Source: Thermodesulfobacteriota bacterium
GTDB taxonomy: Bacteria; Desulfobacterota; Desulfarculia; JACQYL01
DNA: 64,000 nucleotides
Direction: 5' to 3'
Assembly (NCBI GenBank): GCA_963675595.2
Contig: CAXXLZ010000001.1
Location: 1,440,001 to 1,504,000, forward strand
Part shown: one piece after another, positions 8,473-56,973 of the stretch
How the letters are laid out: the number at the start of each line of letters is the position of its first letter
Numbering within the stretch: position 1 is the stretch's first letter
Notes under the pieces: model-generated
Told to the model about the DNA's origin: nothing
What the model saw: only the letters and a program-made list of their open reading frames with translations
Databases searched by the model: none
Position numbers and translations under genes: made by a program

Positions 8473-10134
8473 CTAAACCCGAAAGCGTCCGACCATATTG
8501 CCCAGATCTTCGGACAGCCGATATAATTCTTTGGCGCTGTCATCCACCCGCCGGCTGCTTTCCGTGATGCCGGACGCAGTCCGGCTGACCTGGATGATGT
8601 CTTCAGCAATTCGTCCCGATGCCGCCGAGCCCTGGACCACGTGCTGGTTCACTTCGTCGATGCCCGCTGCAGCCTGGTTGGCGTTCTTCGCGATATTGCG
8701 AGTCGTCGCCGACTGCTCTTCAACAGCCTCGGCAATTCCCGATACAATATGGTTGATTTCCTCGACAACCTTGGAAATTTCGCCCATACCACTCACCGTG
8801 TCGTCGGTTACAAGCTGAACCTGTGCGATACGGGTCTTGATTTCGTCGGTAGCCTCAGCCGTCTGCCTTGCCAGTTTCTTAATCTCGGTCGCAACCACCG
8901 CAAACCCTTTGCCCGCTTCGCCGGCTCTGGCAGCTTCTATAGTGGCGTTCAGCGCCAGGAGTTTGACCTGCTCGGAGATATCGGTAATGGTCTCCACGAC
9001 TTCACCAATGGAATCGGCGGACTTTCCCAGTTCTCGTACACCCTCCGAAAGGCTCCGAGCGCGATCAACCGCCCCGGTCGTGAAAACACGTGCCTTTTCC
9101 GTTCTTTCTGCGATCCCGCCGATGGTTGCCGCCATCTGATCCGCAGCGGAACTCACCATGCCCACACCGCCTGAAGCCTGCAACATAGACGCCGCAACCG
9201 AGTTCATGTTCGCGCTCATCTCCGTGGCGTTGCCCGCAAGCATATCGGATTTGTCCGCCACGAGTTCGGCCTCTGCCGACATTTCCTCCGATATGGCGGA
9301 AAGAGCCTTTGACGCAGTGTTGAGCAAGTCGGAGCCTTTCGAAATCTTTCTCATTTCACACCGCATGGTTTCAGAGAGCGAATTGACGGAAAGAGACAGG
9401 CGGCCCATTTCGTCATCGCTGCGAACATCGCACCGTGCCGTCAAATCACCCTGCGCCAAGGAGCTCATGGCTTTTTCGATCCATTCTACCGGACGCGAGA
9501 TGGAGAAATAATTGATTATGGACAAACACACCACGATCGGAATCACGGCGAGCGTGAGCCACAGTCCGAACTGGGCTCTGCGTTGCGACATCATCGCAGT
9601 TTTCTCCAACGCAGACTCCAGCTCCTCGGTCGCCGCCTTTTGCATTTCCGAAACCAAATTCAGGTATTCATCCTTCTTCTTTCGGAAGACTCCCGTTGCC
9701 TCAGCTATCCGGGCAAAATCCTGATCGATGGTCAGGTCAACGAGAGCGGTTCCGACTCCCAATACCTCATCCGTCATCCCGGAAGCCGTCCGGCAAAGTT
9801 CCTGGAACCGTTCGTCCTGTGACTTCTCCCCCGCTTCCAACAGCTTCTTCTTGAGTTCTTGGGCCAAATCCCGGGCTGTTGCCATCCCGGCGTCCGTGGC
9901 GGCCAACGCACTCGATTCGATATGATTGACGATGGAGCGGGCGGTTGATGCGGCCTTCTCGGAAATCATTGCCAGGACGAATTTGACTTCCTTCACACTC
10001 GTCACCACCTCCACGTTTTTCTTCAACGCCGTGTATCCACTGATGGAAAGGATCAGAAGCGCCAGCAAACAAGTGCCGGATGCTATGAGCAGTTTCCATC
10101 GTATTGAAAGTTTCTTCAACATCCCGCCCCCCAT
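8473..10134 (-). CDS. Methyl-accepting chemotaxis protein (TM-periplasmic helical-TM-HAMP-MA)
   Basis: Signalling hairpin [24 protein letters not shown]; HAMP (DEMGRL); two TM segments. Confidence 0.95.
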
Positions 10135-10189: not shown

Positions 10190-10213
10190 GGCCGCCGGGA
10201 GGTCCCGGCGGCC
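10190..10213 (-). terminator. Strong stem-loop between the rhodanese and MCP genes
   Basis: Perfect 11-bp inverted repeat GGCCGCCGGGA-gg-TCCCGGCGGCC, followed on the minus strand by TTCATGTTT. Confidence 0.5.
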
Positions 10214-10218: not shown

Positions 10219-10944
10219 CTACTTCTCCAAAGCGAAACCTCGAGTCATCCAGGCCATCAGGCCGCCCTGCAAGCGTTCGACGTCTTCGTACCCTTTGGTC
10301 TTGAGAAAGCGTCCGGCGACCAGCACCTGCTTCCCGGCATGATCCACAACGATGATCTTCCTTCCTTTCGGAATTTCGGAAAACCGGTCGGATAGATGCT
10401 CCAGTGGGATTCGATAACTGCCTTTAATGCAACCCATGCCATACAAGGACGGTGTCCGAACATCCAATATGATCGCTTTGTCCAAAAGGCCTTTCACCTC
10501 ATCCGCCCCAAGGGATGAAACCTCCAAACCCGGCAATGCATGTTGTGTGTCTAGGGAAAAGCCCGCCTTGACCCAACCGGGTATGCCTTCCTTGAAAGTC
10601 ATGACTCTTGTGTACCCCCTCTTGGCCGCCAGACCGGCGGCTTCTTTGTACATCACTCATTTGGGCCCTAAACAGTAGGTGATGATCGGCACATTCAAAT
10701 CCGAAGGCAATCGATCGCTGCTCGAGATCGTTTCGAGTGGAACATTTATGGATCCGGGAATATGCCCCTCGTTAAATTCAAGATCACTTAACGGATTCAG
10801 TATGAAGACTTTCTCCCCGGCGTCCATCTTGCTTTTTAGCTCCTTGGCCGTCAGGTCCGGAAAATCCGACGATAAAACCAAGCCGGATTTTAGCGTAAAG
10901 GCCGCAATAAATAGCATACAATATAGTAAAGTCTTGCTTCGCAT
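10219..10944 (-). CDS. Exported tandem rhodanese-domain selenoprotein (in-frame TGA at 10657-10659 read as Sec)
   Basis: ORFs 10657-10983 and 10219-10656 are in the same frame, separated by one TGA inside the rhodanese active-site loop YCLGPK-U-VMY. A SECIS-like hairpin follows. RBS GGAGG before ATG 10944; N-terminal signal peptide. Confidence 0.85.
10625..10641 (-). promoter_or_regulatory. Bacterial SECIS element
   Basis: mRNA reads UGA-GUGAUGUACAAAGAA-GCCGCC-GGUCU-GGCGGC: a 6-bp stem with a G-led apical loop starting 21 nt after the UGA. Confidence 0.8.
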
Positions 10945-11111
10945 TAATATGCCTCCAAAAAGGAACATAACATCAAATGACACACAACCAAGCGAACCAT
11001 ATCACAAGATATGTCCAATGTAGCATATTCCGTCTATATCACCTCCCCCGCTCTTATAGGATATTGTGTCGCTTGTTGAGTAGAGTCCAAAGATAATAAA
11101 ATACTGAAATT

Positions 11112-14100
11112 TCAGTGTCCATCGGTCAACGCCTCCCTCACCTTTGCCGCCAGTCTTTTTGCCGAAAAGGGTTTCTCAATGAAATGCATCCCGGTTTCCA
11201 AAACCCCGTGTCGGGCAATCACATCCGCCGTATAACCTGAAGAGAACAGGACGTTCAGTCGTGAATATCGTGATAGGAGACGCTCCGCCAGTTGTTTTCC
11301 GTTCATTTCCGGCATGATCAGGTCGGTCATGAGCAAGTCTATCCCGCCCGCATGTTCGTCCGCCAATTGCAGGGCCTTCTTTGGGGAGTTCGCTTCCATC
11401 ACCCGATATCCCAGTCTTTCAAGAAGCCTCTTGGTCACCGTGCGTACGGCTTCCTCATCTTCCACCAAGAGGATGCTCTCCCACCCCCCCGGCACGGATT
11501 TCATCTCTGCTGTTTCTCGAGTCGATCCTTCTTCTCCCAAGTATCTCGGGAGATGGATATTGAATGTCGTTCCTTTGCCCGGTTCGCTTAGAACATCAAT
11601 GAAGCCCCCGTTCTGTTTGACGATTCCGTCCACCGTGGCCAAGCCGAGGCCCGTGCCTTCCCCTACCCCTTTGGTGGTGAAGAACGGTTCGAAGAGATTA
11701 CCGACCGTTTTTTCATCCATGCCGCAGCCGTCGTCGATTACGGCGATCATCACGCAATCGCCGCGTATCGAGCCTTCACGGCATGCGTCCTGTTGATCGC
11801 CAAAGGCGACATTCTTCGTCTCTATGACGATGCTACCCGTTCCCGAAATGGCGTCCCGCGCGTTGACACACAGATTGGCGAGCATTTGATGGATCTGGGA
11901 AGGGTCGATTTTGACGGACCACAAACCACCACCCGGGAGCCAGACCATCTCGATGTCCTCACCGATCAGACGCCGCAGCATTCTGAGCATGTCCTCCATG
12001 ATCTCGTTCAGATTCAGCACCTTGGGGCTCACAATCTGTTTTCGTGCAAAGGTCAGAAGCTGCTGTGTCAGATCCGCGGACCGTTTGGCCGCCTTTTGGA
12101 TTTCTAGGAGGTCGGAATAGATTGGTTGGGGCGGACTTGTCTCGTCCATAGCCATTTCAGTGTGTCCCAGGATCACTCCCAGCATGTTGTTGAAGTCGTG
12201 GGCCACACCGCCGGCCAGTCGACCCACCGACTCCATTTTCTGAGCCTGGGCCAACTGGACCCGCAACCTTTCCCGATCCGCTTCGGCCTTCTTGAGTTCG
12301 GTAACGTCTTCCGAGACTCCTTCAATCCAACCTTTGCTCGGCACGAGTCTGGCGGAATTGCGCATCCAGAAAGTCGAACCATCTTTTCTCTTGAAACGCG
12401 CCTCATAATCTCGGACTTCGCCGTGGGCCTTCAAAAGCCGAAGCATCCTCACACGATCTTTGGCGTCGACATATTGATCGGCGATGCCGAAAGGTTCGGC
12501 GAGCAACGAATCCCTGTCCGGATATCCCAGAAATGCGGCTTGCGCGTTGTTTGCCTCCAGCAGCATCCCTGATTCCATCTCCAACCTGAAAAGACCGATC
12601 TGAGAATTGATAAAGATGTTTCTGTAGGTTTCCTCAGCGGTCCGGAGCGCCTCTTCCATTTGTTTGCGCTCCGTCACATCGACCATGACCGTCAAGAAAT
12701 ACCGCCGCCTCTGAGCATCAACGACCTCACCCGAAAAGAGACCCTCCAATATCTTCCCGTCTTTGCGCCTCACCTGCAGCTCAAAGCCGCTGATTCGTCC
12801 TTCATGTTCAAGTTTCTCCGCTATCACCGCCTGTTGCCGCGAGTCCGGAAACAACCCGAGTTCCGCGGAACTCCTGCCGATGACCTCCGAAACATCATAC
12901 CCGAGGGTCTTGAGGAACGCGTCGTTGACATCCACAAAACGACGATCCGGTGAGCTGGAGAGCGCCATTGAGGCGGGGTTGTGCCGAAACAGGCTTTCGA
13001 ACCGCTGTTGCGCTTCCCGTTCCGCGGTCAGGTCCTTGCTGATGCCGAAGACACAGTCCCGCTCATTCCACTTGCCGAGCCACGCACGGGTCTCGACCGC
13101 AAAGATCGCACCGCCCTTGGCGACTATGGGCAGGGGACAAGTATCCCGTTCGCCTCGCAGCATGGCTGCGAATATCCTCTCCGCCTCCCCTCGCACCTCT
13201 CTCGGATGAAGGTCCGGAATGTGCATGGCGATCAGTTCTTCCGAACGGTAACCCAGCTTCTTCTCGACCGCGGAATTGCAGTATAATATCCGCCCTTCCG
13301 GAGTCGCCACCATGACCATGTCGGTCATGGTCTCGAAAAAAGTGCGGAAGTTGGTCTCGCTTTCCTTTAATCTGCTTTCCGTCCGCTTGAGCTCGGTGAT
13401 GTCCGTAGTGGTGCCGAAAGCCACCACATGGCCGTTCGGCTGTCTGCGGGCGGATCCGTGGGAACGCACCCACACTGGGGCGCCGTCGGCTCTGCACAGC
13501 CGGTACTCGACACTCTCATGCTGCTTGAGCGACGCCAGCCCGGATTCCAGCGTGTCTTTGACCGCCGGAATATCCTCCGGATGCACGTGGGAAAGGAATG
13601 CATCCGGACCGCACCCCACCGTTCCCTCGGGCAGTCCCAAAATCCGGTCCAATGCCGTGGAAATGTAGCTGCCGACAAATTGACCGCATTCATCCACTTC
13701 GTAGCGCCAAACGATGTCGGAGATATTGGAAATGAGCTCTTGATATCGGGCCTTGCTAGCTCTGAGCCCCTCCTCGGCCTCTCGTCTCGCGGTGATGTCG
13801 ATACCCGTGGCCAGAATTCGGTCCACTCCTCCGATGTTCACCGGGACCAGTCGAACCTGCTCCCAGAAGGCTTCACCGGTCCTTTTGCGATTGAGCCATT
13901 CGAACTGCTGAGGTCCTTCCAGAGCCGTCTTCCGAATCCAACCCAAAGCCTCTTCGGCGGAGTAGGGAGGCTCAGCCCAGAAATCATTCGCCTTGAGCTC
14001 CTCGATGGATGAAAACCCGTAGCTGGATACGGCCGTCGGATTGGCCTCGATGATTTCGCCGGTATTCTTATCGTGAATGATGATGGAGACCGGTGATTCC

Positions 14101-15677: not shown

Positions 15678-16073
15678 TCACCGGATCAAACCCAACTTTC
15701 TCAATTCTTAGAGGAAACGGCTTTTATCAACAGGTTTCACCAGGTAACTATCGCAAAGACCGCCATAGGCCTCGCTTACGGACCTGAAGTCATCCAAAGC
15801 CGTTGTCATGACAATCTTGGCACCATTGGATGAAAGTATGCCTCTAGCTTCCTCGTCCGCGCGAATTTCCTTCAGCGCTCTTTGCCCGTCCATCTTGGGC
15901 ATCATAATGTCCAGACAAACCAAATCGTAAGGCTCTCCCGCCTCCATGGCCGGACGAAATGCCCGGCCCCCTTCCTCTCCGTTGACCGCAATATGCACCG
16001 TGCCGAAACCCTTCAGAAATTCCTGCAGAATCACACGGCTGATGAAATCGTCCTCCACGATCAATGTCTTCAC
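15678..16073 (-). CDS. Single-domain response regulator (CheY-like) with an apparent premature TAA at 15708-15710
   Basis: LIVEDD...LDIMMP...VKP. After the TAA the frame continues ELRKLGLIR-TGA (15678). The GTG start overlaps the upstream kinase stop (GTGA). Confidence 0.85.
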
Positions 16074-18007
16074 AATTCATCCTCATGGTGACTCATTTGT
16101 ATATCCGTTGCATCCTCCATGGCCGCCTTCAAGCTTTCGAATTGCTTCTCGAGTTCGGGTAGGAGCCCCTCCACCTCGTCCAGGTTGCCCAGTTTAGCGG
16201 CTCGCTCCATTTGGAAAGCCGTTGCACGGACTTGCTCTCCGCCCACGCCGGCGGAGGCCCCCTTGATGCTGTGGGCAAGTCGCTCGCATTCCGAATGATC
16301 ACCACGCTCGAGTGAGGACTCAAGAGAACCGATCAGTGTGGGCATGTCGTTAAGGTATACCTCCACAATCGTATTCAAGATATCTTCGTCGTCCAGTAGG
16401 CGTCTCAACAGGTTCTTTCGGTCAAAGACCACATCGGATGGTCTAATCCTGTCTTTCTCGTTTTCCTTTTCCGGTGCCTTCTTTTCCATTGCGAGCCACT
16501 TGCCGAGTTTTTCCGCCAACTCGCGGCCGTTGATCGGTTTGGCAAGGTAGTCATCCATCCCCGCTTTCAGGCATTTCTCGCGATCGCCTTTCAAGGCGTG
16601 CGCCGTCATGGCAATAATGGGCACCTTATGATTGAGAACCGCGGAGCGAGGATTTCGAATGCGGCGTGCGGCTTCCAACCCGTCCATCACAGGCATCTGC
16701 ACGTCCATCAGGACCAGATCGTACGCGGTCCTTCCCAATGCCTGGAGGGCGTCGGCTCCATTCGCGGCCGTGTCGGCTTGAATCCCCAGCTTTCCAAGCA
16801 TGGCCAAGGCCACTTGCTGATTGGTGACGTTGTCTTCGGCAAGTAATACGCGCTTGTTCGCAAAGGCGGACATGGGGGGCGTTTCGATGTTGGAGCTCAA
16901 CAAGGGCTCTGGAGATTTCAACATCGCATCAGCATGACGACCCGCAAGAGCCCTCGAAAGCACTCCAATAAGTTCCTGATGACGCATCGGCTTGGTCAGG
17001 CACGCCGTAACCCCTATTTCCGCCAAGCTGGGACCGTCGAGCCGAATCCCCAAAGATGTGAGCATCACCATGGGAGTTCCGGAAATATTCCGGTCCCCTT
17101 TGACGGCTCTAGCCAAATCCTCACCATCCATGCCCGGCATCTGCATGTCGATTACCGCGAGCCGGAAAGGATCTCCCTCGCCCGCCGCGTGCAACAACCG
17201 CTCGATGGCCGTCGGACCGTCTTCGGCTTCCTGCGGACGCATCCCCCAAAAGGAAAGCCGTTTGGACAGCACTTCCCTGTTGGTCGCATTGTCGTCCACG
17301 ATCAACACCCGTACGTTCCGGAGATTCTTCGTTGAGTCCGATTCCAAACGCTCCTTGGCCGTCTGTTTGCCCAGACGAACGGTGAATTGAAACTCGGACC
17401 CTTGGCCTTCCCGGCTGTTGACTTCGATCCCGCCGCCCATCATTTCGGTCAGCTGTCTCGATATGGCCAAACCCAGACCGGTGCCGCCGAATCGCCGGGT
17501 GGTGGAGGCGTCCACTTGGCTGAACTTGTTGAACAGCAGCCCAAGCTTGTCTTCCGGAATACCGATGCCCGTATCTCGAACGGAAAAGCGCAATACGACC
17601 TCGTCATCGCTTCCAGTTTCCACGGAAACCATGACGGCCACTTCCCCGGAATGGGTGAACTTCACCGCGTTACCGGCCAAATTAACCAAGATCTGTCGGA
17701 GACGTCCCGGGTCACCCCGCAGCAACAAGGGTACTTGAGGATCGGCGCTGCATATCCATTCCAGTCCCTTCTCGTGAGCGCGCAACGCCATAGTAGCGGA
17801 GAAATCCTCCAGCAGATTCTCCAAACTGAAATCCAGTACCTCCAGTTCCAGTTTTCCCGCCTCGATCTTGGAGAAATCCAGGATGTCGTTGATGATGGCG
17901 AGAAGGGATTCGCCGCTGGAACGTACGGTCTCGGCATATCGACGCTGTTCCTCCGACAGGTCGGTATCCAGAAGAAGGTCCGTCATACCAATGACCCCGT
18001 TCATGGG

Positions 18008-19392
18008 CATAAGCGCTAACTTAAGCCTTTTGTTTTGGTGAGGTTTATGGTACCGTTGCCGCCAAAGGAGGTGGCAATGGAGCGTCTCGTTTTTTCCGAG
18101 GAAATGGAAGACTGGGAAGTTCTCCAGGGTTTTCTTCCCGATGGCTGGCAATCCAAAGCAAGGGAACTTGGTGCCGTTGTCAGATACCGTAAGTTCGTGG
18201 ACGCCGAAGGTCTGTTGCGAACGCTTCTGATCCATCTGGCGGAAGGTTGCTCACTTCGGCTGACGGCGGCCAAAGCCAGGTTCGGCAACATTACGTCGAT
18301 TTCCGACGTAGCTCTCCTAAAACGACTGAATAAATGCGGAGAGTGGTTTCGGTGGATGGCCTTAGGGGTCATGGAGAAATGGTTTCGAAAGCTGCCCGCC
18401 GTTGTTTTTGGAGAGAATTCACGCATCAGGTTGATCGATGCCTCCACCATTCAAGAACCTGGAAGTACCGGAACGACTTGGAGGGTCCATTATTCCATAC
18501 AATTGCCTTCGCTGCGCTGCGACGAAGTCTATGTAACAGACCCCAAGATCGGAGAATCCTTCACCAATTTCAAAGTCCATGGCGGTGAACTTCTTGTAGC
18601 GGATAGAGCCTATTGCACACCAAGAGGAATTCACCATGTCATAGACAACGGCGGCGACGTCCTGGTTCGAATGAAACACCGTGTCGCCATGGTGGACAAG
18701 CAAGGGGAACGATTCCAATTACTCCCTCATCTAAGGACGTTACGTGTAAATAAGCTTGGCGACTGGGATGCATTCGTTCCATTTGAACAACGCTTGGTTG
18801 CAGGTAGAATCTGTGCCATCAAGAAGAGCAAAGACGCCACTGAAAAAGCTCGTAAAGCGATAGAAAAAGAGGCGAGGAAAAAAGGTCGCCAAGTTACTCC
18901 GGACACCCTCGAAGCGGCGGCCTACATATTTGTTTTCACAACATTGGGCCGTGAAATCTCGCCCTCTCAGGTCCTCGAGATGTACCGAGGTCGATGGCAA
19001 ATTGAACTCGCTTTCAAGCGTCTAAAGTCCATTCTCGGTTTAGGCCATCTTAGAAAGACCGACATCGAAGGAGCCAAGGCCTGGATCCATGGGAAACTAC
19101 TGGTGGCTTTCTTAGTGGAGGCCATGATCGCCGCAGGCGAATCTTTTTTTCCCTGGGGATACCCACTCCAAAAAGAACCACCGTAGAAATCGATGCTTCT
19201 GGAGAGAGACCATGTTTATGTTACACCTGCTGAAACAAGCCGTGAACCCTAAACTCGGCTTGGCCGAATGCATTGCCGGCTGGGATAACATATCTTTTTA
19301 TTTGCGAGAACCGCCAAGGAAACGAGCACTTCAGCGGCTGATTCCTCAGACGGAAAGAAGCATAGCAAACAATGCTTAAGTTAGCGCTTATG
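18008..19392 (+). mobile_element. IS4-family insertion sequence (1385 bp)
   Basis: 19-bp perfect IRs CATAAGCGCTAACTTAAGC; 11-bp target duplication CCGTTCATGGG at 17997-18007 and 19393-19403. Confidence 0.95.
18035..19186 (+). CDS. IS4-family DDE transposase
   Basis: LIDAS, VADRAY and YRGRWQIELAFKRLK (YREK signature). Confidence 0.92.
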   Translation: MVRFMVPLPPKEVAMERLVFSEEMEDWEVLQGFLPDGWQSKARELGAVVRYRKFVDAEGLLRTLLIHLAEGCSLRLTAAKARFGNITSISDVALLKRLNKCGEWFRWMALGVMEKWFRKLPAVVFGENSRIRLIDASTIQEPGSTGTTWRVHYSIQLPSLRCDEVYVTDPKIGESFTNFKVHGGELLVADRAYCTPRGIHHVIDNGGDVLVRMKHRVAMVDKQGERFQLLPHLRTLRVNKLGDWDAFVPFEQRLVAGRICAIKKSKDATEKARKAIEKEARKKGRQVTPDTLEAAAYIFVFTTLGREISPSQVLEMYRGRWQIELAFKRLKSILGLGHLRKTDIEGAKAWIHGKLLVAFLVEAMIAAGESFFPWGYPLQKEPP

Positions 19393-22300
19393 CCGTTCAT
19401 GGGGGTACGGATTTCATGGCTCATGTTGGCCAGAAATTCGCTCTTGGCGATATTGGCCATTTCGGCCTGAAGGGCCATTTCATTGGCGCGGGCGGTGGCT
19501 TCTTCCAGTTGTCGATTGGATTCCAGCAGTTCTTCTTCGGCCCGTTTACGCTCCGTGATATCACGCCCCGTGGACTGGAATTCAACCACCCGTTCACCCT
19601 CGTCGATAATGACCGTGTCCGTCCACTCCTGCCACATACGGGTACCATCCTGCCGAAAGGACTCATGCACGTATACATGGGTGGGATTCCCACCGTGTAG
19701 CTTGGCGAGAGCCTTGAGAATCGGTGCATGGTCCTCGGTCGGCACGAATTGCAGAAACTTCCGCCCCACCAATTCGTCGGGCCGCCGCTCGAAACACCGG
19801 GCATAGGCTTCGTTCACAAAGGTCAGCGTGGTATCCGGGAGGAAGCGACAGATCATCTCCTTCTGGGTTTCCACTACAGAGGCCAGCATTTGCTCGTTCA
19901 CCATCAGAGCTTCCTCGGCAGCCTTGCGGTCGGTGATGTCCCGGGCGACCGCGTAGATCGTTGTTCCAATCGGCTTGGAGCGCCATTCGATCCAACGATA
20001 GGAGCCGTCATTTCGGCGATAGCGGTTCTCGAATTTTTGCACCTCTTCCTGGTTCACCAGTCGGCTTATGGCGCCGAGAGTGTCTTCCATATCGTCGGGG
20101 TGGACATAATCCAGGAAAACGGTCCCCTCAAGTTCCTCAACGGAGTAACCGAGCACAAGCTCCCATTCCGGGTTCAGCCGAATGAAACGGCCCTTGGTAT
20201 CGGCAATGCACAACAAGTCCAGGCTCGAATTGAAATAGCGGTCCAATTCGTCCTTTTGGGCCTGCAATTCGTCCCGCGTCCGTTTGCGCTCCGTAACATC
20301 GCGCAAGACCCCTACCGCATGCCACCCGTCGGACTGCTTCATGGCCGAGAGGGACAGTTCCACGGGCACTTCTCCGCCGTCCTTGAGCCGCGCCTGCAGA
20401 TCCACAATCTTTCCCACGTCAGGGCCTTCACCCGTCTCACGGAAACGGGCGAATCCTTCCCGATGCCTGGAACGATAACGTTCCGGCATTAGAAGATCGT
20501 GCAGGTCGGCGCCCATAGCCTCATCCCGACCGTATCCGAAAATACGCTCCGCCGCCGGGTTCCAGAACGAGATGTTCCCATCGGGGCTCATCATCACGAT
20601 CGCGTCCTGGGCCGCTTCCGTGATGGCCCTCATTCGAGTTTCACCGGCCCTCAACTCCTCCTCAACTCTTTTTCGCTCCGTAATATCCGAAATCACACCG
20701 ACAATGCCGGTGACCTTGCCTGCATCGTCCGAGATTGCAGCCTTATGGAAGATTACATCCTTGGCAAATCCTTGCTTGCTTATGATTCTTGTCTCATAGT
20801 GCTGCCTTCCTCCCGCTGCCAGCAGCTCTTTATCTCTTCTAAAATATTCATCGGCAAAGTTGGATGGATACAGGTCATAGACTGTTTTGCCTAATATTTC
20901 CTTAAGGTCTCTACCCAAAAACTCCTCAAATACCTTGTTGCAACCCGTATACAGGCCGTCGGAGTCCTTGTAGAACACTGGGCTGGAAATGGTTTGCAGT
21001 AAGGTATCTCTGAATTTCAGCTCCCTGTACAACGCTTCATGCGCACGTTTACGTTCGGTTACGTCAATGGAAATGCCGACAAATCTATGAACACTCCCGT
21101 CCTCGCCGATGATCGGTGAAAGGAGCACCCAAAAACTAATCATGCTCAGATCGAGCTTGAGGAATTCCGCCTCGAAGGAATTTTTTTCACCCTGGAGCAC
21201 CTTGGTCACGGCATCCTGAACAACGGGCCTGGATGAATCGGGCCAAACCTCCGAGAATCGAATCCCGATAATTTCTCTCTCGGATCGGCCGGTGGCTTTC
21301 AGACCGGAGGCATTGATGGACAGGTACCGCCCCTCTTCATCAAACAGGCTCACGCTGTTGGGAGAACTCTCCACCAATATTCGAAATCGTTCCTCGCTTC
21401 CTCTTAGCTCGCAGGTACGTTCCGCGACTAGACGCTCAAGGCTCCTGCGATGATTCAGGACCAAGCCGACCAAAGACCCCAGCGCCAAAGAGAGCAGGAA
21501 CCCCACGGAAGCCACCGTCCATCCGGCTCTTTCACGATTCAGGCGGAGGAATTTTTCTCCGGGAGAGACGGTTACGGCAAGAACTTTGCCAAAGGTGAAG
21601 ATGGGAAGCAGTTTTGCGTTCGTCTCGACTGAAGAGGTGTCAGCGCTGCCTGCACAGTGGAGAACTTCCGTCCCGGCGTCCTTCCGCAGGAGGCAGATAT
21701 TCATGGCCACGGAGTCATCCGGCGCCGCACTTTTCAGCAGAGTCTCCAACTGCAAAACGGCAAGGACGAATCCTGTCAGCCTTTCGGGCGCCGACTTGCC
21801 GAAAACCGGCTGGAACACCAGCATTGCTTGTGGGCCGGCGGATTCCTGAACCAAGGTGATAGGGGCCGTGGCGGTGGCCAAACCGGTCCCGGCCGACTCT
21901 TCCAGGGCGGCTTTCCGCAGTGGTTCCGACCCAAGGTCGTAGCCCACCGCCGCGTCGTTGCCGACCATTGGGTGGACCCACAGAACCGGGTAGTAACGTT
22001 CTCTATTGGTTGCCGGAACCCGCATACCCAGGTCGTCCCTTTGCCAAATTTCGAACCCCGACAAACCCGCCGAACGAGCCCGCTTCTCAAAACCGTCCCT
22101 ATCCTCTGCCGGCACCTCCGGAATCCATTCCCAAGCCCTTACCGAGGCATCCTTGGTGAGATAGGAAGCATACTCCCCAAACTCCTTGAGGTTCACGATG
22201 CTGCTGGCCGAATAGAAGTGCGCCAAACCTTCGAGTTCCCTGTCCCGCAGGTTCCGAAGGTTTTCGGCAATGATCCCCACGCGCCCGGATGCCAATTGCG

Positions 22301-23116
22301 CAAAAGCCTTGTCTCTTTCACGGACTTCCTGTCCATGAATCAATCGGGCGACAAAAATCGTCAGCACCAATCCCACCGCCACAATGGCCGCAGCCTCGAT
22401 GTGCCGCATCCGGTTCGACGGCTGTAAATCATCCCGAGATCTGCGCAACCGCAGATTCCAGGCCGCCATAAGGATTGCGACCAGTACCCCGGTGAGCAAC
22501 AACGGAGAAACCGCAGCCTTGAACAAGCTGCGGTTCCACTCGCCTGCATCGAAATCCATGGCAAGCACGGCGGTCACGGAGTTGGTGAACCTGTCCGGAA
22601 GCGGTGCGGCGCCGCTGACGAAGCGGCCCCATTGGTCTTCATACGGCCCGGCCGCAGTGGGAGCTTTCGTATCGAATACACGGGAGAACTCCTGAGGCGC
22701 ATCCTGGTAGACCATGCCTGCGGGTGCCTCATCCTCGTCCCCGACCGGTACGTCGTCCACGAAAAAGAAGAGCTCCCCGTTGGCCTTACGCCCTATAAGA
22801 TAGACAAAACGGCATCCCGGCAGGGATGCTCGAAGCACGCCAAATTGCTCCTTCAGCCGGAGATAATAGGGATTGGAAACATCCGACTCGGTGCCCGAGA
22901 GCTTGGCGATCTGCTCGATGTTCAATGCCCCGGCCACGAACCGGGTGCGCTCGACCAATTCATCTCGCATCTCCCGATCCGCCTGCGCCACCACCCACCA
23001 CGTCAAAGAAGCACCGGTGGAGACGGTGATTACAAGCAGCAATGCGAACAGCCAAGCATTGCGCTCGGACTGGGGAAGTTCTGTCGGTCCGGACCCGTTC
23101 ATGCGAAATCAACCTC

Positions 23117-27173: not shown

Positions 27174-29053
27174 TTGATGAGTTCGTAAAAACCTCTCCGT
27201 AAAGGTATCTAGTTGAAAATATGAATAAAAATGGCATTTATGGGTTGACCTTTCTTTTGGGTCCTGTATGATAAGTATCTGACTTGATTAATAATATGGT
27301 CCTTAGGGGGGTTGTTTTGTTTCGGCCTAAGAGAACGCAAAAGACCATTTTCGACCACGATATTTGCCTTCCCGCAGACAGGATCGAGGCGTTGGAGAAG
27401 ACGTGGGCCGGTCCGTTCCGGCGCCTGGTGCTTCCCATGATCGATGAGGAGTCTTTCCGGCCTTTCTACTGTGAGGACAACGGCAGGCCCAACAGACCCG
27501 TGGCCATCCTTGTCGGAGCGTGTGTTTTGAAGGAAATGAACAGCCTGACCGATGCGGAAGTCTTGGGCGCTCTGGACTTCGATCTGCGTTGGCAATATGC
27601 CTTCAACATCAACGCCTTTGAATCTCACGTCTGCCAGAAGACCCTGCACAATTTCCGGACCTTGATTACCGACAACAAGCAAGCGCGGAGCCTCTTTACC
27701 GGAATCACGGACGCCATCATCGAGACGGCGGCCCTTAGCACGGACAAACAGCGGTTGGACTCCACACAGATCACTTCCAACATGGCTCATCTGAGCCGTC
27801 TGGGGCTCTTTACGCGCACCATCGAGGCGTTCTTGAAACGGCTCCATAAGAAACATCCCAAGTTGTATGAGAAACTGCCCCGACTTTACGACAAGGCCTA
27901 CTTGAAGCGCGCAGGCTATTTTGCCGATGCAAAATCATCGCGGGCCAAGCGTCGTCTGGACAAGTCCGCCCGCCATCTCGCCGACCTGGTGGACCGCTTC
28001 CGAGGTCATCCGGAAATCAGCCGAATGAAAGAATACCGGCTGATGGCCCGACTACTGTCGGAGCAATGCCGTTTCACCGAGGGAGATCCCGACAAAACAG
28101 AACTCGAGAAGCCCAAGGAAATCCCTGCGGACTCCCTGCAGAATCCTTCGGATCCCGACGCCACCTATGGGCGCAAGGGCAAAGGATATAAGGCTTCCCT
28201 CACGGAGACCTGCGTGAAGGAAAATCCCTTCCAGGTGATCACCGATGTGGACGTGGCCCCTTCCTATGACAGCGACCAGAAAGACGTGATGCCCGTTATC
28301 GAACGCCTGGAGGAAACGGGCCGCAAACCCGAAGAGTTGTTCGCCGACGCAGGCTACGGCAGCGGCGAGAACATCCTTCAAGCTCACGAGCACGGAGTCG
28401 AGCTTACCGCTCCGGTGACTTGCGGAAAAGCGCCGGATCTCAATAAGATGCAGTTGAGTGACTTTGAAACGAACGAGGACTGCACCCAGGTCGTTTACTG
28501 TATCCGGGGGCACGCGCCACTTGAATGCAAGATCGTTGACCGCGGCAAAGCGGTGGAAGCCGTGTTTTCCCGCGAGCACTGTCTCCTATGCGAATTTCTC
28601 CCCATCTGTCCGGTAAAACGGATCAAGGGCGGAAATTATCGACTGAAGTACAAGCGCAAGGACATGGCGACCTCCAAGCGCAGACTACAGCAGGAAAGCC
28701 ATGATTTCAAAGAACGCTACAAAATCCGGTCCGGCATCGAGGCCACCATCTCCGAAGCGGATCGGGTCACGGGATTGAAACGATCGTGGACCCGAGGCAA
28801 AAAACGGGTCACCTTATCTGTTTTCATGAAGGCCCTGGCCATCAACATCAAGAGGTTCGTCCAGAGCCGCCTTGATAAGGCCAAGAAGGCCCTTTCCAAC
28901 TCGATAGAGGGAGGCAGCAACGATAATTTCCGTCGTCTTTGTAGCCTATGTCACGATGACAGTAACCTTGGCAGTGTTGCAATGGCCGCTTGAACTTCCA
29001 ATGCTCCAAAAAACAGCCCTGTTCGTAAAGGGGGGTTCTTACGACGGCATCAA
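27174..29053 (+). mobile_element. IS1182-like insertion sequence (~1.88 kb)
   Basis: Imperfect IRs TTGATGAGTTCGTAAAAACC / GGTTCTTACGACGGCATCAA. The duplication is TC, or AATCTT if the ends are drawn 2 bp inward. Confidence 0.85.
27284..28993 (+). CDS. DDE transposase, IS1182/IS5-clan-like (DUF772-type N-terminus, Cys-rich insert)
   Basis: GRPNRP, RLDST, SDPDATY, ADAGYGS, CLLCEFLPIC, YKIRSGIEATIS. Confidence 0.88.
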   Translation: MINNMVLRGVVLFRPKRTQKTIFDHDICLPADRIEALEKTWAGPFRRLVLPMIDEESFRPFYCEDNGRPNRPVAILVGACVLKEMNSLTDAEVLGALDFDLRWQYAFNINAFESHVCQKTLHNFRTLITDNKQARSLFTGITDAIIETAALSTDKQRLDSTQITSNMAHLSRLGLFTRTIEAFLKRLHKKHPKLYEKLPRLYDKAYLKRAGYFADAKSSRAKRRLDKSARHLADLVDRFRGHPEISRMKEYRLMARLLSEQCRFTEGDPDKTELEKPKEIPADSLQNPSDPDATYGRKGKGYKASLTETCVKENPFQVITDVDVAPSYDSDQKDVMPVIERLEETGRKPEELFADAGYGSGENILQAHEHGVELTAPVTCGKAPDLNKMQLSDFETNEDCTQVVYCIRGHAPLECKIVDRGKAVEAVFSREHCLLCEFLPICPVKRIKGGNYRLKYKRKDMATSKRRLQQESHDFKERYKIRSGIEATISEADRVTGLKRSWTRGKKRVTLSVFMKALAINIKRFVQSRLDKAKKALSNSIEGGSNDNFRRLCSLCHDDSNLGSVAMAA

Positions 29054-31545: not shown

Positions 31546-33999
31546 CTAGAAATCCTCCAGGTCATCCTCTTTCGGGAGAATCAACTCCACGGGTTTAGCC
31601 TCTTCCCTTCTATCCCGCCTTTCCGGGCGTCGGCCCGCGGCTATCGGCAGGAGATTGTGCTGTCTTCCTGCATGAGCGCCGTTTTCCGGCTCTCGGTGAA
31701 GCCCGGCTTTCTCGGGGCCTTCGACCAGGCTCATGAGTTCAGCTACGGAGACCTTGGTGGTTCGGCATTGAGCATGCATTTCCTCTGCGGCCCCGGCCGA
31801 CCGCTCGGCGCCGGCCACGTTGGCCTGGATCACCCTGTCCAACCGGCTCACACCGACGCTGATCTGTTCGATCCCTGTGGACTGCTCCTCGCTGGTCACG
31901 GCAATCTCCGAAACAAGATCGGCCGCCTTCTCGGCCGACTCGGCTACTTGCCCAAAGGCATCCCGAGTCCGATTTACCTGCCCGGCCCCCTGGTTGATCC
32001 TCTGGACCGTCTCCTCCACCAGAGACTGGGTATTCTCGGCCGCCTCGGCCGCCTGCATGGCCAGATTGCGGACCTCATCGGCCACCACCGCGAAGCCGGC
32101 CCCGGCTTCTCCGGCACGGGCCGCCTCCACGGCCGCGTTGAGGGCCAACAGGTTGGTCTGGAAGGCGATTTCGTCTATGGACTTGACAATCTTGCCGATT
32201 TGACCGCCGGCCCGTGCGATCTGCTCCATGGCCCGGGCCATCTCCGACATGGACAGACCCGCCTCGGCAATTACGTCCCGGGCTTCCTTCATCAACCTGT
32301 CGGCTCGGCCTGCGTTATCGGCATTGCTTTTTGTCTGGGAGGACATCTCCTCCAAAGAAGATGCGATCTGCTCCAACGACGCGGCCTGCTCACTCGCCCC
32401 CTCGGCCAGACCCTGAGAGGCTGAGGAGACCTGGGTGGAGGCCGAGGCGATTTGATTCGTCCCGTCGCTGATAATCCCGGAGATCCGACGCAAAACGCCG
32501 GTAGTCCCCCGGATGATGCAAAGGGCCAGCAGGATGCCGGTGACAATGGCCACGCCTCCCACTACAAAGACGTTGAGCCGGGTACCTTTCGCCGCGGACA
32601 GCATGGCTTCGTCGGTCATGAGGTGCCTTTTGGCTTCCGCCCTGATCCTGTTCAAAAGCCTTTGCGCCTCGCTGAGGCTTGGTTGGGTCTCGGCGGCATA
32701 GATCGAGGCGGCCTCCTGGGCGGCGGCAACCAGCTTTTCCTCGGCGTCGATCAGCTTCTGGAACTCATTGCGGAGAGCGGACAAACTGGGCAACGTTTCT
32801 CGCTCGTACACGTCAAAGGCCTCGGCAAACCGGTTTTCGCCCACCAGTTCTTCTAAGGCGGCTGCGGAACGGTGCATCCTTTCGTGGGGGCCCGCCACAT
32901 CTTCGAAGAATGCGGCCAGAGCCGGAAAGCGGTTTGCGATGCCCTGGATTTTGGGATCGCTGATGAACTCGGCCAAAGCGCATTTGCCGGGATCCAGCTG
33001 CACTCCAAGCTCGAACGGTCTGCCCGCCACAATGTCCGCGGCTCGCGCCATAAGTCCGGGGTTCTTTTCATCCAGGTAAATCCCGGTGCCGATGACCCAG
33101 CTCCAGGGCTTGAACAGCTTCACAAAGGAGAGTTTGGGCACCGGCTCCTTGGCGTCCGGCTTGGGCCAGTAGTACATGACGAAGCCCTCACCCCTGTTTT
33201 CGGCCACCTCGACAAAATCCATGAAAAGCTTCTTGCCTCTGGTGTCCTTGAAGCCGCTTAAGTCCTTGCCATCGAGTTCGGGTTTGTACGGATGCATCAC
33301 CATGAACGGATGGAGGTCATTGATCCAAAGATAGTCCTTGCCTTCCGGGCCGTACCGTATCTCCTTGATATATTCCATGGCCAGCCGTCGGCGTGCCGCG
33401 GGAGTCAAAGTGGTGTCTCCCGCATACGCGGCTATCTGTTTTACCGCCTGCTCCACCACATTGCGTAGGACCGCCTGATCCGTTCCGAATCTCACCGCCT
33501 CCTCGGCCAGCCCATGGGACACCTTGTTGGCCCAGAATAGATGCTTGATCAACACGCTGTAGAGGCCTTCCATCATTCCAGGATGAGGCTGGCGAAAGAT
33601 CTCGGCAATGTGCGCCGCGGAGTCGTGCAACCTCAAGTGGGGGGCCTCCATATCACCAAGCAACGGCCTCAGGCTCGGCACCTGGGTTTCGGCCGCCTTT
33701 CGGCCTTCTCCATAGTACCATGTGCCGAATCCGCACTTGTGGGGATCGAGTTCCACTTTGAGTTCGGCAATCTTGGGGTCGGTCAGATAGGCGTTGACCT
33801 GCTGGGCCCAGTTCAAATGATCGATTTCTTTCTGGGCCAAAATACCGTCCAACCTGTTCCCGTCGATCACCTCGCCGGCGTTGAGCACTATGTCCCCAAC
33901 CCCGGTAAAACAGAGCAGGGACGACAAAGCCAGAAGCACCAGCACAACCGCAAACCCCAAGGTGATCCTTTTCCCGATGGTTATGCTCCTCCAGGACAT
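31546..33999 (-). CDS. Methyl-accepting chemotaxis protein with extracytoplasmic CZB, Cache and CZB domains
   Basis: [23 protein letters not shown]; CZB motif H..C..H..H (DHLNW, CGFGTW, PHLRLH); single Cache (YLWIND..MHP..WVIGTG). Confidence 0.93.
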
Positions 34000-51893: not shown

Positions 51894-52397
51894 ATGGAAA
51901 CTGAACAGTCAAGATTCGATGAAATTACGTCTTCCGATTCCAAATACTTGGAGTTTTTAATTGATGAGGATTCATATGCAATTGAAATACTTAAAATAAG
52001 GGAAATCATAGGAATGATGGATATAACCAACATTCCAAAGACACCTGAATACATCAAAGGAGTCATTAATTTACGAGGCAAAGTAATACCGATCATGGAC
52101 CTCCGTGGTCGTTTCGGAATGGGCTTAATAGACTATACGGATCGAACCTGCATCATTGTAGTGGATATTTCCGTGAGCGGAGCGCCCCTACGAGTCGGAC
52201 TCGTCGTGGATAAAGTGTCCGAAGTGCTCAACATAAGTGGTGATGAAATTGCCCAACCACCCGATTTCGGCCCCCATTCAAGAATGGATTTCATACTGGG
52301 AATGGCCAAGAATAAAGGGGATGTAAAAATACTGCTCGACATCGATAAGGTGCTTTCGTGCAAGGAGGCGGACCTATTAGGCCAAGCCGGAAACTGA
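51894..52397 (+). CDS. cheW: Chemotaxis coupling protein CheW
   Basis: YIKGVINLRGKVIPIMDLR..GLVVDKVSEV..ILLDIDKVL. Confidence 0.95.
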   Translation: METEQSRFDEITSSDSKYLEFLIDEDSYAIEILKIREIIGMMDITNIPKTPEYIKGVINLRGKVIPIMDLRGRFGMGLIDYTDRTCIIVVDISVSGAPLRVGLVVDKVSEVLNISGDEIAQPPDFGPHSRMDFILGMAKNKGDVKILLDIDKVLSCKEADLLGQAGN

Positions 52398-52535: not shown

Positions 52536-53327
52536 ATGAGAAAGCAGTGGAGTATCGGCAAAAAACTTATTTTATCCTTCGTTTCAGTGGCGTTGATCAC
52601 ATTGGTACTCGGGTTCATCGGCTATTACAGCGCCGTAAAAAGTAGGCAGAGTGTCAACGAGTTGGGAATGGTCAGGCTTCCCAGTGTGAGTGCGCTGTTG
52701 ACCATCGCTCAGGCGCAGACGACCATTGATAGAGTGGAAAACGCGCTACTGAGCCGGTCTCTGGACGTGGCTCAACGGGAGAAACGTTACGATAAACTAT
52801 CCAAGGCGTGGAATCGTATCGAAAAAGCCTGGAATATCTATGAAGCGCTTCCCCAGACGGAAGAGGAGGCAAGGGTTTGGAAGGAATTCGTCCCGGCGTG
52901 GCGGAACTGGAAAAAGGATCATGAGGCCTACCTGGTCCTCTGCAAGGATTATGATCGAGCCGTCTCCATTCAAGACGGAACTGCGGACGGCATGCACTCC
53001 CGAATGTCTCAACAGACACTGGTCGTTAATCCCATCACCTTAGCCAAAGCCGAAGAACTGATCAACAGGCTTGTGGAGATAAACGAGTCGGTAGCGGAAG
53101 CGGCCACCAAGAACGCGAGCGTGAGAGCGAGCTTCGTTCAAGGCCTCAGTCTTGCGGCCATGATCTTGGGCGTGGGCTTGTCCCTTGCCATGGGCATCCT
53201 CATTACCCGAAGCATCACCAAGAATATTCATCGAATCGTATCAGGCTTGAGTGAGGCATCTGAACAGGTGAGTGCGGCCGCCTCCCAGGTTTCTTCCGCG
53301 AGTCAGTCTCTGGCAGAGGGCGCATCG
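52536..53327 (+). pseudogene. MCP (four-helix-bundle sensor) truncated at the start of its signalling domain
   Basis: TM-4HB-TM then EQVSAAASQVSSASQSLAEGAS, abruptly replaced by IS3-end sequence at 53328. Confidence 0.88.
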
Positions 53328-53523
53328 TGTCAAGCCCCCAGTTTTTGGTCCAGGAGTTATGAGAGTTTTATCATGACTCGCGGTTTTCCATCCCCGGCCC
53401 TTGGGGCCTCGGCGAAGCCGAGCTGAGCGAGGCGGAGTCGATGCCCCAAGGACCAAGCAAAGAAATCACAGGGCCTTGAGAAAAACTCTCATAATTGCTG
53501 GACCAAAAACCGGGGGCTTGACA
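53328..53523. mobile_element. 196-bp element made of two outward-facing IS3-family right ends
   Basis: Starts TGTCAAGCCCCCAGTTTTTGGTCCAG and ends CTGGACCAAAAACCGGGGGCTTGACA. The left ~125 bp nearly match the IS3 right end at 61849. No target duplication. Confidence 0.85.
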
Positions 53524-54265: not shown

Positions 54266-55067
54266 GCCGTACAGGTTATCCCCTTTCTTTTGAGTACCAA
54301 TAATGCCCCCTGATTATGACTGAATTTCACCACGGATTACACGGGCTGCATAAGCATGAACATTGAGAAACTGTGCTGACAAACTCATATTCTTCTCGAC
54401 AAGAGTCAAGAGTTGACTTGACCCCTTTCACAAAGCGCTTGGAAGTCCGGACCGAGGTCGCGACACCAGACCCCATGCGCTTATCCCCAACAAGTTGAGG
54501 GCATTTTCGAGAAACGCCGCAAGCTTGGGCACTGCTTGTCGGTCTGCCTCCTCCACGACCCATCGAGCAAGATCATGCTTGTCCTGCTCGCTGATCACGT
54601 AGCGAACGCCCGTAGGTGCTCGAATCTCCAGCTCCGCCTGACGCTGCTGGCTTCCGATAAACTCTTCGATGAGCGACACAGGCAATAGATCCTCGATCTC
54701 GGCGACCTGTCGCACATGGTCGTATGCGCTTTTGGGCAAGTCTATTGCATCGATGGGGACCGAGACGACAGGATGTCGGAACTCGACGAGCTGCTTTCGC
54801 AGCCGCTTCCCGATGACGTCGGAATCAAGAACCGCGACACAGGGTCGGCCTTGGTTACGGAGGGCGATCGCCTGCTCTGCAACGATACTGGCACCGCCGC
54901 AGTCCCGAACATCAACGGCAGATGACGATGGCAGGCCTTGCAGTAGCCATTCGAAATAGACCCTGTCAGTGTAGCCCTCTACGAGCAGGGTCGGTCGTGT
55001 CGGCGGTGGCGACGTGGCCTGTCGATACGCCGAAGCAGCATCTGCTGCCTGTAGATGCCCGGAGAAG

Positions 55068-56365
55068 TGGAATGCCCCCCGATAATTGGTCCATGTATAA
55101 TGAGAGTCTGAATGCCCAAAGAACGGAAGGAGACTTTTTGCATGGCCAAGAGAAAGAGACACAGCGCGGAGCAAATCATCCGGAAACTTGAAGACGCGGA
55201 CCGTCGTCTGACGGCAGGGCAGACGATAGCGCAGGTTTGCCAATCGCTGGAGGTGAGCGAGGCGACGTACCACCGGTGGCGAAACCAGTATGGGGGGATG
55301 AAGGCTGAGGAGGCCAAACGGCTAAAAGAACTGGAAAAGGAAAATGCACGCTTAAAAAAGCTGGTCGCCGATCTGATGTTGGACAAGGCAATGCTGAAGG
55401 ATCTTGCGGAGGGAAACTTCTAAGCCCGGCGCGTCGTAGGAAAGCGGTTGATTATGTTCGAAGTGAACATGCCGCTTCAGAGCGTCGGGCCTGCCGCGTA
55501 GCCGGTCAACACCGATCCACCCAACGTTATGAGCCGAAGGAACGGGACGATGAGGTGGAACTGATCAAGGCTCTTCACCGGTTGGTTGGAGAACATCCCC
55601 GTTTTGGATGCCGTAGGATCACTCGGCTGCTGCGTGATGCGGGGTGGGCGGTAAACTACAAGCGAATTCATAGACTTTGGAAAGAGGAGGGATTCAAGGT
55701 ACCTCGAAAAGCCAAGAAGAAACGCTTCCTGGGAGTTGATGCCAATGCGTGCAACAAGCGTAAGGCGGCTTTTGCAAATGATGTCTGGACGTTGGATTTC
55801 ATTCATGACCGCTTGGTCGACGGCCGTCAGTTCAAGTGCTTGGCCATTGTCGACGAGTTTACTCGGGAAAACCTGGCCCTGAGGATCAACCGCTCCATTA
55901 CGGGTGAAGACGTTTTGAACGAGCTGAGCCGATTGATGGGCGAGCGGGGAGTTCCAACGGGCATTCGATCGGATAACGGTCCCGAATTTATAGCCCAAAA
56001 GGTGAGAAATTGGCTGAAAGACCTGGGAGTGGGAACCTTTTTCGTCGAGCCGGGAGCCCCTTGGCAGAACGGGTACGTGGAAAGTTTCAACAGCCGTTTT
56101 CGGGATGAATTCTTGAACATGGAAATTTTCAACAACATCAAGGAAGCGCAGACTCTGGCCGCCAAATGGCGGAAAGTCTATAACGAGGAAAGACCGCACA
56201 GTGCATTGAATTACATGACCCCGGCCCGGTTCGCGGCGAGCCCTTGGGGCCTCGACTCCGCCTCGCTCAGCTCGGCTTCGCCGTGGCCCCAAGGGCCGGG
56301 GATGGAAAACCGCGAGTCATGATAAAACTCTCATAACTCCTGGACCAAAAACTGGGGGCTTGACA
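55068..56365 (+). mobile_element. IS3-family element (IS407-group-like), copy 1, 1298 bp
   Basis: TG...CA ends with imperfect IRs; 4-bp duplication GAAG; orfA/orfB with a GGGAAAC frameshift window. Confidence 0.95.
55142..56322 (+). CDS. IS3 transposase OrfA/OrfB (programmed -1 frameshift near 55411-55423)
   Basis: OrfA HTH (MAKRKRHSAEQII..LKELEKENARLKK); OrfB rve core (WTLDF, SDNGPEF, PWQNGYVESFN, YNEERPH). Confidence 0.93.
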
Positions 56366-56973
56366 GAAGCCCCAGCCAGCTCCCTTCAAGCCGCCAAGAA
56401 ACCCGTCTACCGTTCGAAACCCCTCTGGCATCCCGCTGGCACAGCAGAACTTGGCGCACTCCTGAATCGCAACGAGATCGCCCGTCAGGCAGTTCAGCAC
56501 GATCCAGCTCTCCACGAAGGCTTCGACGTCTTGGGGCCGCGACACTAGATCATCCAAGAACACCAACGCAGTATCAGGGCGCTTCGCGAGAAGCAGGTTC
56601 CGCGTCCGAGTGGACAGCTCTGTCATTGAAGCGAGAAGCGAGTGGTCTGACGCCACAACAAGCCTGATCAACTCTTCGCGGAGCCCCTTCGAGAACTTGT
56701 CGAGGTCGTCCGCTATGACTGATAGTCCCGAGCGGGACTTGAGTAGCGCGATGGAATCGGTGCAGTCACTTCCGTCTGGAGGAGGCATCACCACGGCATC
56801 AGCTACTTCATGGCCAACTGCAGTCAGAAGGTGCGACTTCCCGGCGCCTACCGCCGCAACGATGACACATGTACTCGGCGTCTCCCCGATCCATGAACGG
56901 ACTGAGGCGACCGCCGCAGACATCGACGAAGAAATTTGTACAGTGTGGCCTGGGTCCAGTAAGCTCATGCTTC

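Follow-up and report, generated by a model that had tools for sequence, protein, structure and literature searches.

The window, by which we mean the whole 64-kb stretch of DNA analysed here, carries a minus-strand gene that very probably encodes a selenoprotein, an apparently exported tandem rhodanese whose first domain bears a C-x4-Sec loop. Close relatives of this gene mostly lie beside genes for chemoreceptors that share one four-helix sensor domain of an unnamed family, and this conserved pairing is a more interesting result than the selenoprotein itself.

Gene structure and reading frame

The first-pass annotation had placed a hidden selenoprotein at 10219..10944, naming no strand, and had predicted that standard annotation would split it into two genes. 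The gene lies on the minus strand and runs from ATG 10944 to TAG 10219, with a sole recoded codon, TGA (10659-10657), in the context ITYCLGPK-U-VMYK (loop C91-LGPK-U96); a plus-strand reading of the same interval was dropped because that frame holds many stops. The expected split is what standard ORF calling (table 11) delivers, as two pieces at 10657-10983 and 10219-10656, and the protein database holds only the C-terminal piece of the window gene, with 145 aa (P0002). The full-length start is preceded by a Shine-Dalgarno sequence (Table 1); none was found ahead of the GTG and ATG codons 3' of the TGA. In the window DNA TGA retains its ordinary role, ending 11 of the 21 long genes checked, and a genome-wide reassignment of the codon was rejected on this ground.

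Table 1. Positions of the selenoprotein gene, its elements and the neighbouring receptor gene in the window
Feature	Position	Strand	Remarks
Tandem-rhodanese gene, very probably of a selenoprotein	10219..10944	-	241 aa with TGA as Sec; two Pfam PF00581 stretches; AlphaFold2 model
Shine-Dalgarno sequence GGAGG	10952..10956	-	7 nt upstream of ATG 10944
Probable Sec-pathway signal peptide, about residues 1-26	10867..10944	-	predicted from hydropathy and similar homolog leaders
Rhodanese domain 1 with C91-x4-U96 loop	10543..10866	-	
Cys91 (TGT), canonical rhodanese active-site position	10672..10674	-	homolog alignment
In-frame TGA, very probably read as Sec96	10657..10659	-	Cys in homologs; TGA or TGY in GTDB loci
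Bacterial SECIS-like hairpin GCCGCC-GGUCU-GGCGGC	10625..10641	-	
Rhodanese domain 2, Asp201 (codon 10344-10342) in conserved D-H-A/S-G-K-Q loop	10222..10521	-	probably non-catalytic
Intergenic GC-rich hairpin, 10 bp, weak T tail	10190..10213	-	in rhodanese/receptor gap
Sigma-70-like promoter match TGGACA-17-TATTAT	11093..11121	-	some 150 nt upstream; weak (three such matches, chance expectation 1.7)
Methyl-accepting chemotaxis protein (MCP), TM - four-helix sensor - TM - HAMP - MCPsignal	8473..10134	-	co-oriented, next gene downstream
Periplasmic four-helix-bundle sensor domain	9574..10020	-	matches no Pfam family at cutoff; G128 and Q138 invariant

Probable selenocysteine at position 96

It had been proposed that the TGA occupies the second Cys position of a rhodanese loop, and an alignment had been asked for, in which homologs with a non-Cys residue or a true stop at this position would count against selenocysteine. 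A homolog search returned 74 proteins, and among the 24 close full-length ones used for the count position 96 is Cys in 23 and Ser in one, the only non-Cys residue; full-length identity to P0003-P0025 is 44-57%, with conservation on both sides of the UGA. The database also contains 21 C-terminal halves, 19 of which begin at residue 97 or 98 and two at residue 105 or 106, and two N-terminal pieces that stop exactly at position 95. Gene callers evidently split the CxxxxU selenoprotein, such that fragments (21 C-terminal, two N-terminal) are about as many as whole proteins (24). The codon was traced for two of the 21 C-terminal fragments, P0028 and P0042, which read the same as the TGA loci L001 and L002. 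Of 41 pattern matches in GTDB genomes, 15 were confirmed as loci (L001-L015), with codon 96 being TGA in five (L001, L002, L004, L006, L015) and TGT or TGC in ten.

The six TGA genes (the window gene and those of the five loci) were rejected as a single clade with a p-AU of 0.0002 on 25 chosen rows; for this tree position 96 and the residues encoded by the SECIS were masked, and it was computed without L009, L010, L013, L014, any of the fragments and a number of nearly identical Cys proteins. In a larger tree of the C-terminal part TGA forms are interleaved with Cys forms, and the nearest tree relatives of the window gene are interrupted forms too. As the TGA forms do not make up one clade, the codon has gone from Cys to TGA or back on more than one occasion, in line with Sec/Cys exchange; a single inherited nonsense mutation was rejected by the same p-AU. 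The one homolog with Ser at position 96, P0022, keeps the Sec-type AAGLVA segment, and a single base change in a TGA form may have given rise to it. The relatives are mostly from Desulfobacterota, described as a selenoprotein-rich group in the accessible parts of PMC13326102 and PMC5029168. Neither a tRNA gene (ARAGORN) nor an Rfam match was found within the 64-kb window, and ARAGORN returned one tRNA-Gly and no tRNA-Sec on the 15 loci.

A SECIS hairpin at canonical spacing had also been put forward in the first-pass annotation. We coded the bSECIS rules of PMC13188914 (Fig. 2) ourselves, with a loop of 3-9 nt, a spacing of 16-37 nt, a stem of at least 4 bp, an energy of -7.5 or lower and a G in the first two loop positions, and the window hairpin (-11.6 kcal/mol, TGA-to-loop gap 21 nt) falls within every one of these limits, as do 76 of the 2258 TGA triplets in the window (3.4%), so that the hairpin alone is modest evidence for Sec. 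Its z-score against shuffles is -1.6 over 60 nt and -2.3 over 26 nt. The rule is passed by five of six TGA genes versus three of ten Cys genes (one-sided Fisher p=0.059), and the failing TGA gene, that of L015 (-6.8 kcal/mol), still has the GGUCU loop. Over the six genes 94% of stem cells are paired, and covariation does not exceed that of shuffles (72-89 of 500; six sequences); the stem sits on conserved Ala-Ala codons. The GG of the loop is provided by the codon of Gly104, a residue present in 16 of 19 fragments versus none of 23 Cys proteins, where the rows are related and a nominal p overstates the difference. This pattern, at the protein level, is the clearest sign for the hairpin.

Given the Cys opposite the TGA, the same TGA in five other genomes and the maintenance of a SECIS-like hairpin, the decoding of TGA96 as selenocysteine is well supported and, in our estimation, very probable. 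Were the TGA a true stop, the locus would be a pseudogene or a two-gene split with a C-terminal piece of 144 aa beginning at the Met two codons downstream, and this Met98 (ATG 10651-10653) does occur in all six TGA genes (window and 5/5 TGA loci) versus 2 of 23 Cys proteins, a distribution that could reflect lineage history or re-initiation of the C-terminal half under selenium shortage. We consider a true stop highly improbable, however, for in six genomes, which do not form one clade, the interruption coincides exactly with a conserved Cys codon, it would cut domain 1 ahead of helix 98-108 and strand 114-117, the internal start has no Shine-Dalgarno sequence, the hairpin and Gly104 are kept in interrupted forms, and fragments without Met98 also start at 97-106. 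One base change would likewise suffice to turn the TGA back into TGT or TGC, yet a sequencing or assembly miscall is effectively refuted, since the same TGA recurs in five independent assemblies, and the nearest relatives are interrupted as well.

Protein architecture

The N-terminus has a basic start followed by a hydrophobic run (mean hydropathy 2.0 in the best 19-residue segment) and resembles the leaders of homologs, many of which end in A-x-A, suggesting export of the 241-residue product to the periplasm. Pfam PF00581 matches in two stretches with 92.3 bits versus a gathering cutoff of 22.2, and an AlphaFold2 model built from a 30-row alignment, with Cys replacing Sec, shows two domains in a continuous fold (mean pLDDT 92.4, pTM 0.79) whose structural neighbors are rhodanese-fold proteins (VIA Z up to 19.3). 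The earlier description of an exported tandem rhodanese with Asp for the catalytic Cys in its second domain is thereby borne out: D201, within VVDHAGK, stands in the column of the catalytic Cys of distant rhodaneses.

In a wider two-domain set Cys91 is kept in 72 of 77 rows and the second Cys (position 96) in 67 of 77, the latter thus not being universal. Exported tandem rhodaneses of this CxxxxC/Asp kind make up a large Cys family, with 78 rows of 200-300 aa, to which none of the scanned libraries gives a name of its own. The window protein scored 38.1 for GlpE and 32.7 for PspE versus an NCBIfam cutoff of 102, which by score places it outside the active thiosulfate sulfurtransferases of GlpE/PspE/TST type, and no NCBIfam family reached its cutoff with the window protein or with five Cys homologs. 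A tblastn search of plasmids with the rhodanese found only distant rhodaneses, all below 60% identity.

The chemoreceptor partner

The MCP gene downstream may start at ATG 10122 (the database copy has 549 aa), and the gap of 85 nt that separates it from the rhodanese gene holds the GC-rich hairpin, possibly a partial terminator or mRNA stabiliser; strong hairpins 3' of the rhodanese stop are also seen in L001, L003, L005 and L008-L012. No sensor family in Pfam matched the sensor at cutoff, and 4HB_MCP_1 (PF12729) and TarH (PF02203) gave nothing at E<=1; its language-model features (ESM Atlas) compare at 0.95 to the 4HB_MCP_1/TarH clusters. Its model is a four-helix bundle (pLDDT 88.9) in which Q138 falls in the turn that joins helix 3 to helix 4 (turn motif I-D-Q-D/E-F). 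Foldseek returned no match for the sensor at E<=0.001, and the Z scores of helical bundles do not discriminate. Fold matches include LytS and, equally well, the direct ligand binders Vc1313, MCP2201 and PcaY; the fold consequently leaves docking versus direct ligand binding undecided.

An MCP with the same sensor adjoins the rhodanese gene in 11 of the 15 loci (L001-L003, L005-L012), at a distance of 22-537 nt, and L007, L011 and L012 have a second sensor-MCP copy on the other side of the rhodanese. In L004 a convergent MCP runs off the contig at its sensor end, in L015 a CZB-type MCP lies directly upstream and the downstream flank is only 1.3 kb long, and in L013 and L014 the 5-10 kb around the rhodanese hold no MCP. 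An HMM built from the L007-L012 receptors only matched the window sensor at E=1.5e-17 and left four other MCP genes in the same DNA unmatched at E<=10, from which it follows that the homology is not circular. L007-L014 are one inherited chromosomal locus and therefore count as about one observation. L001, L002, L003, L004/L005 and L006 have no other flanking gene in common at >=40% identity (comparison of the 15 loci), and the window pair is flanked by hybrid kinases. The rhodanese and the sensor MCP thus occur together in some seven independent contexts, where their layout is tandem, divergent or convergent. In L001 the order is cheA-rhodanese-MCP-cheW...cheB-cheR.

The sensor is joined to three cytoplasmic lengths or architectures, with or without a Pfam-detected HAMP, so that the rhodanese goes with the sensor domain rather than with the signalling module. 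As a single query sequence the window sensor region retrieved nothing but itself. With a profile, 27 longer proteins were retrieved, some of them the receptors of the loci; 25 carry MCPsignal, and those with names are mostly from Desulfobacterota. A family model of its own is merited by this sensor. Periplasmic Cys is absent from 32 of 35 receptors, and none is conserved, making a disulfide relay onto the receptor unlikely. The identities of rhodanese and sensor correlate without significance over six independent pairs (rho 0.44, p=0.10), and mirror distances over 11 non-independent pairs are suggestive only (rho 0.84 for the sensor versus 0.46 for the cytoplasmic part, and 0.30 with divergent copies). 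No gene for sulfur metabolism, sulfur transfer or a reductase is conserved beside the pair in the 15 loci. Judged from gene order, a genetic partnership of the rhodanese with the sensor MCP is established.

The loci have further features of their own. The cytoplasmic part of the receptor is frameshifted in the assemblies of L003 (10810-12165) and L009 (5603-6832), with intact sensor domains. In L013 (6275-10726) and L014 (1754-6205), which sit on a long branch, the rhodanese overlaps the end of a sensor kinase and sigma-54 regulator pair, possibly a switch of partner; a second rhodanese gene lies upstream in L013 (4628-5368). Loci from Desulfobulbales have a MauE-like membrane protein 3' of the receptor (L007 12463-12942, Pfam PF07291; L008; L011 12192-12653), which is possibly a periplasmic disulfide-handling partner, and a further exported rhodanese-domain gene (L011 8981-9559, minus strand) separates the divergent MCP from the tandem rhodanese. 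L009 encodes, 4 kb away from the rhodanese, a phosphonate-binding-type periplasmic domain (PF12974; 1-735, minus strand), a domain type known from thiosulfate/tetrathionate sensor kinases; it did not show up as a conserved neighbor.

The window is itself dense in signal transduction genes (4570-53426). Numerous response regulators and PAS-rich hybrid kinases are joined there by CheW (51894-52397), an MCP of CZB/Cache type (31546-33999) and a truncated MCP of 4HB type (52536-53426). Transposases (DDE, IS3-type integrase core) occur at 18035-19186, 27284-28993, 55555-56322, 60882-61820 and 61892-62659; the first lies between hybrid-kinase halves (19221-23102 and 16070-18235) and appears to interrupt the kinase. 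Among the IS elements, the minus-strand interval 54428-60396 encodes a 1140-aa protein (weak nSTAND NTPase5), a weak AAA_16 and a weak OLD-like TOPRIM piece, and is possibly a defence-type locus; PADLOC gave no match for its genes.

Proposed mechanism and alternatives

The periplasmic Cys/Sec redox or sulfur-transfer role assigned in the first-pass annotation is compatible with our results and incomplete, having missed the conserved chemoreceptor partner. With modest confidence, we favor the view that the rhodanese is a periplasmic Cys/Sec accessory sensor of the neighboring chemoreceptor, both the binding and the signal being putative. SelB and tRNA-Sec, guided by the hairpin, very probably read UGA96 as selenocysteine. 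By analogy with rhodanese chemistry, the C-x4-U loop of domain 1 would then act as a redox pair, in which Cys91 occupies the site where rhodaneses usually form the persulfide and Sec96, at the opposite end of the loop, is the resolving or attacking residue, and domain 2, with Asp for Cys and the DHAGKQ loop, may be a non-catalytic binding or docking module. The protein would react with or bind sulfur species (polysulfide, other sulfane sulfur, thiosulfate) or report the periplasmic redox state, and one of its states would dock on the four-helix bundle of the receptor to modulate CheA, as MBP does on Tar and XylFII on LytS. Docking of the modified or liganded rhodanese would be a simpler model than a disulfide relay, and the intergenic hairpin would be in keeping with a soluble partner made in larger amounts than the receptor. 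Because the Cys of rhodaneses forms persulfides and Sec has a higher reactivity at neutral pH, sulfane sulfur or the periplasmic redox state would be the likeliest input. The ligands of most such chemoreceptors are, to our knowledge, unknown, and the sensing of polysulfide or redox gradients by sulfate and sulfur reducers is an open question. A periplasmic polysulfide-reducing selenoenzyme is described for Geobacter in the accessible part of PMC13510729, and four-helix-bundle sensors are presented as a class driven by periplasmic binding proteins in that of PMC8050422; an exported soluble protein conserved beside a receptor with such a sensor is what the window and the 11 loci contain.

All evidence for selenocysteine applies equally to a free-standing periplasmic enzyme, whether a sulfurtransferase or a thiol/selenol redox enzyme (Sud- or ExtH-like), that makes no contact with the chemoreceptor and is only co-regulated with it, the receptor itself directly sensing the same compound or a related one. 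The rhodanese fold and Cys91 are intact, direct ligand binding is common in four-helix sensors, the gene persists without an MCP in L013 and L014, and the scarcity of periplasmic Cys in the receptors, which speaks against a disulfide relay, is also in keeping with a free enzyme. Such an account, the main rival, is nevertheless somewhat unlikely, as it is the sensor domain that is conserved nearby and not a sulfur-transfer or reductase partner, the pair outlasts rearrangement and the exchange of cytoplasmic modules, and the pair of L001 lies inside a che cluster. In a variant of the accessory-sensor model that we hold improbable, the ligand of the C-x4-U pair would be a metal or metalloid oxyanion (selenite, arsenite, tellurite, mercury), and the system would sense or detoxify this in place of sulfur species. 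A selenol beside a thiol is a good soft-metal ligand, and the rhodanese-fold As/Sb reductase 2j6p is among the fold matches (Z 13.1), but this match is generic to all rhodaneses and metal-resistance genes are conserved in none of the 15 loci. The Geobacter rhodanese-like lipoprotein ExtH is linked to selenite uptake in the title of a reference in PMC13510729.

Returning to the accessory sensor, a stronger version, which we advance tentatively, is that the selenoprotein may be the signal-capturing subunit of the chemoreceptor, its C-x4-Sec loop taking up sulfane sulfur or reading redox state and the protein docking on a dedicated four-helix MCP sensor family. If true, this would constitute covalent, chemistry-based sensing outside the cell and taxis to polysulfide or related sulfur species, in the setting of sulfate- and sulfur-reducing Desulfobacterota. 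Natural Cys and Sec versions share the partner, cultured Desulfosarcina cetonica (L003) being included, which makes both the binding and the benefit of Sec directly testable.

Comparison with known systems

A 2026 catalogue of 119 selenoprotein families (PMC13188914) lists in its Table 1 five rhodanese forms, with the motifs UxxS, UxxG, CxU, UxxG and, for TsoB, UxxxxU. As far as that table goes, the CxxxxU motif and the exported tandem-rhodanese architecture are absent from the catalogue, and TsoB is the nearest entry. TsoB (NF045694, rhodanese/DsbD fusion-like, form 5) has in common with the window protein a rhodanese domain and an x4-spaced two-chalcogen motif ending in Sec, and positions 47-161 of its model match window residues 32-136 with E=1.1e-11. 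The window protein nonetheless scores 43.6 bits where the cutoff is 805, has 241 aa versus a 572-position model, contains one Sec (CxxxxU) and not two (the Sec positions being likened by motif spacing), lacks the DsbD-like part, and has a second, Asp-type rhodanese domain and a chemoreceptor neighbor; it accordingly falls outside TsoB. The rhodanese_LYCAU family (NF041203, form 3) likewise has a single Sec and a Cys at the active-site position, but its motif is CxU, and against its 126-position model the window protein scores 51.3 and Cys homologs score 62-75 bits, below the cutoff of 115. Forms 1, 2 and 4 (UxxS, UxxG, UxxG) share PF00581 with one Sec; going by the same table, their motifs begin with Sec, whereas the window Sec lies five residues past Cys91 and is followed by VMY.

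Rhodanese-like selenoprotein families without the CxxxxU motif are also found in the accessible parts of PMC1976440, PMC9312934, PMC5029168 and PMC8318568, and PMC3543383 mentions rhodanese and chemoreceptors separately in its accessible text. The word rhodanese is absent from the main texts of PMC12013277 and PMC13326102, the supplements of which could still hold a Sec form. The titles and abstract openings returned by literature searches contain no description of a CxxxxU tandem-rhodanese family, which the TsoB paper (Haft & Tolstoy 2025), BSepDB or supplementary tables may already list, and none of a rhodanese-chemoreceptor pair.

By structure, the tandem-domain rhodanese 6mxv (Foldseek E=6.9e-15, VIA Z 16.6), BH2092 (3nhv, Z 16.0) and Wolinella Sud (1qxn, Z 12.2) resemble the window protein, but with 12-23% identity and a different domain packing (rmsd about 11 A for 6mxv), and none of the three is known as a selenoprotein or receptor partner. 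The loop motif of BH2092 we take to be of the CxxxxC type. On the receptor side, the closest parallels are MBP-Tar and XylFII-LytS, described in the accessible part of PMC8050422, in which a periplasmic soluble protein acts on a receptor with a four-helix-bundle sensor, an arrangement that is putative here and drawn from genes and models; the word rhodanese does not occur in the text of that review. Among natural fold matches of the window sensor, LytS-N ranks near the top (Foldseek E=0.049, TM 0.69/0.83; VIA Z 13.6, rmsd 2.1 over 120). The partner in the window differs from MBP and XylFII in that it is a rhodanese selenoprotein and not a Venus-flytrap binding protein. Rhodanese-like selenoproteins as such are known already, and what appears to be new here is the motif (CxxxxU) and the architecture (exported tandem), in a redox-active selenoprotein tied to a specific chemoreceptor sensor family.
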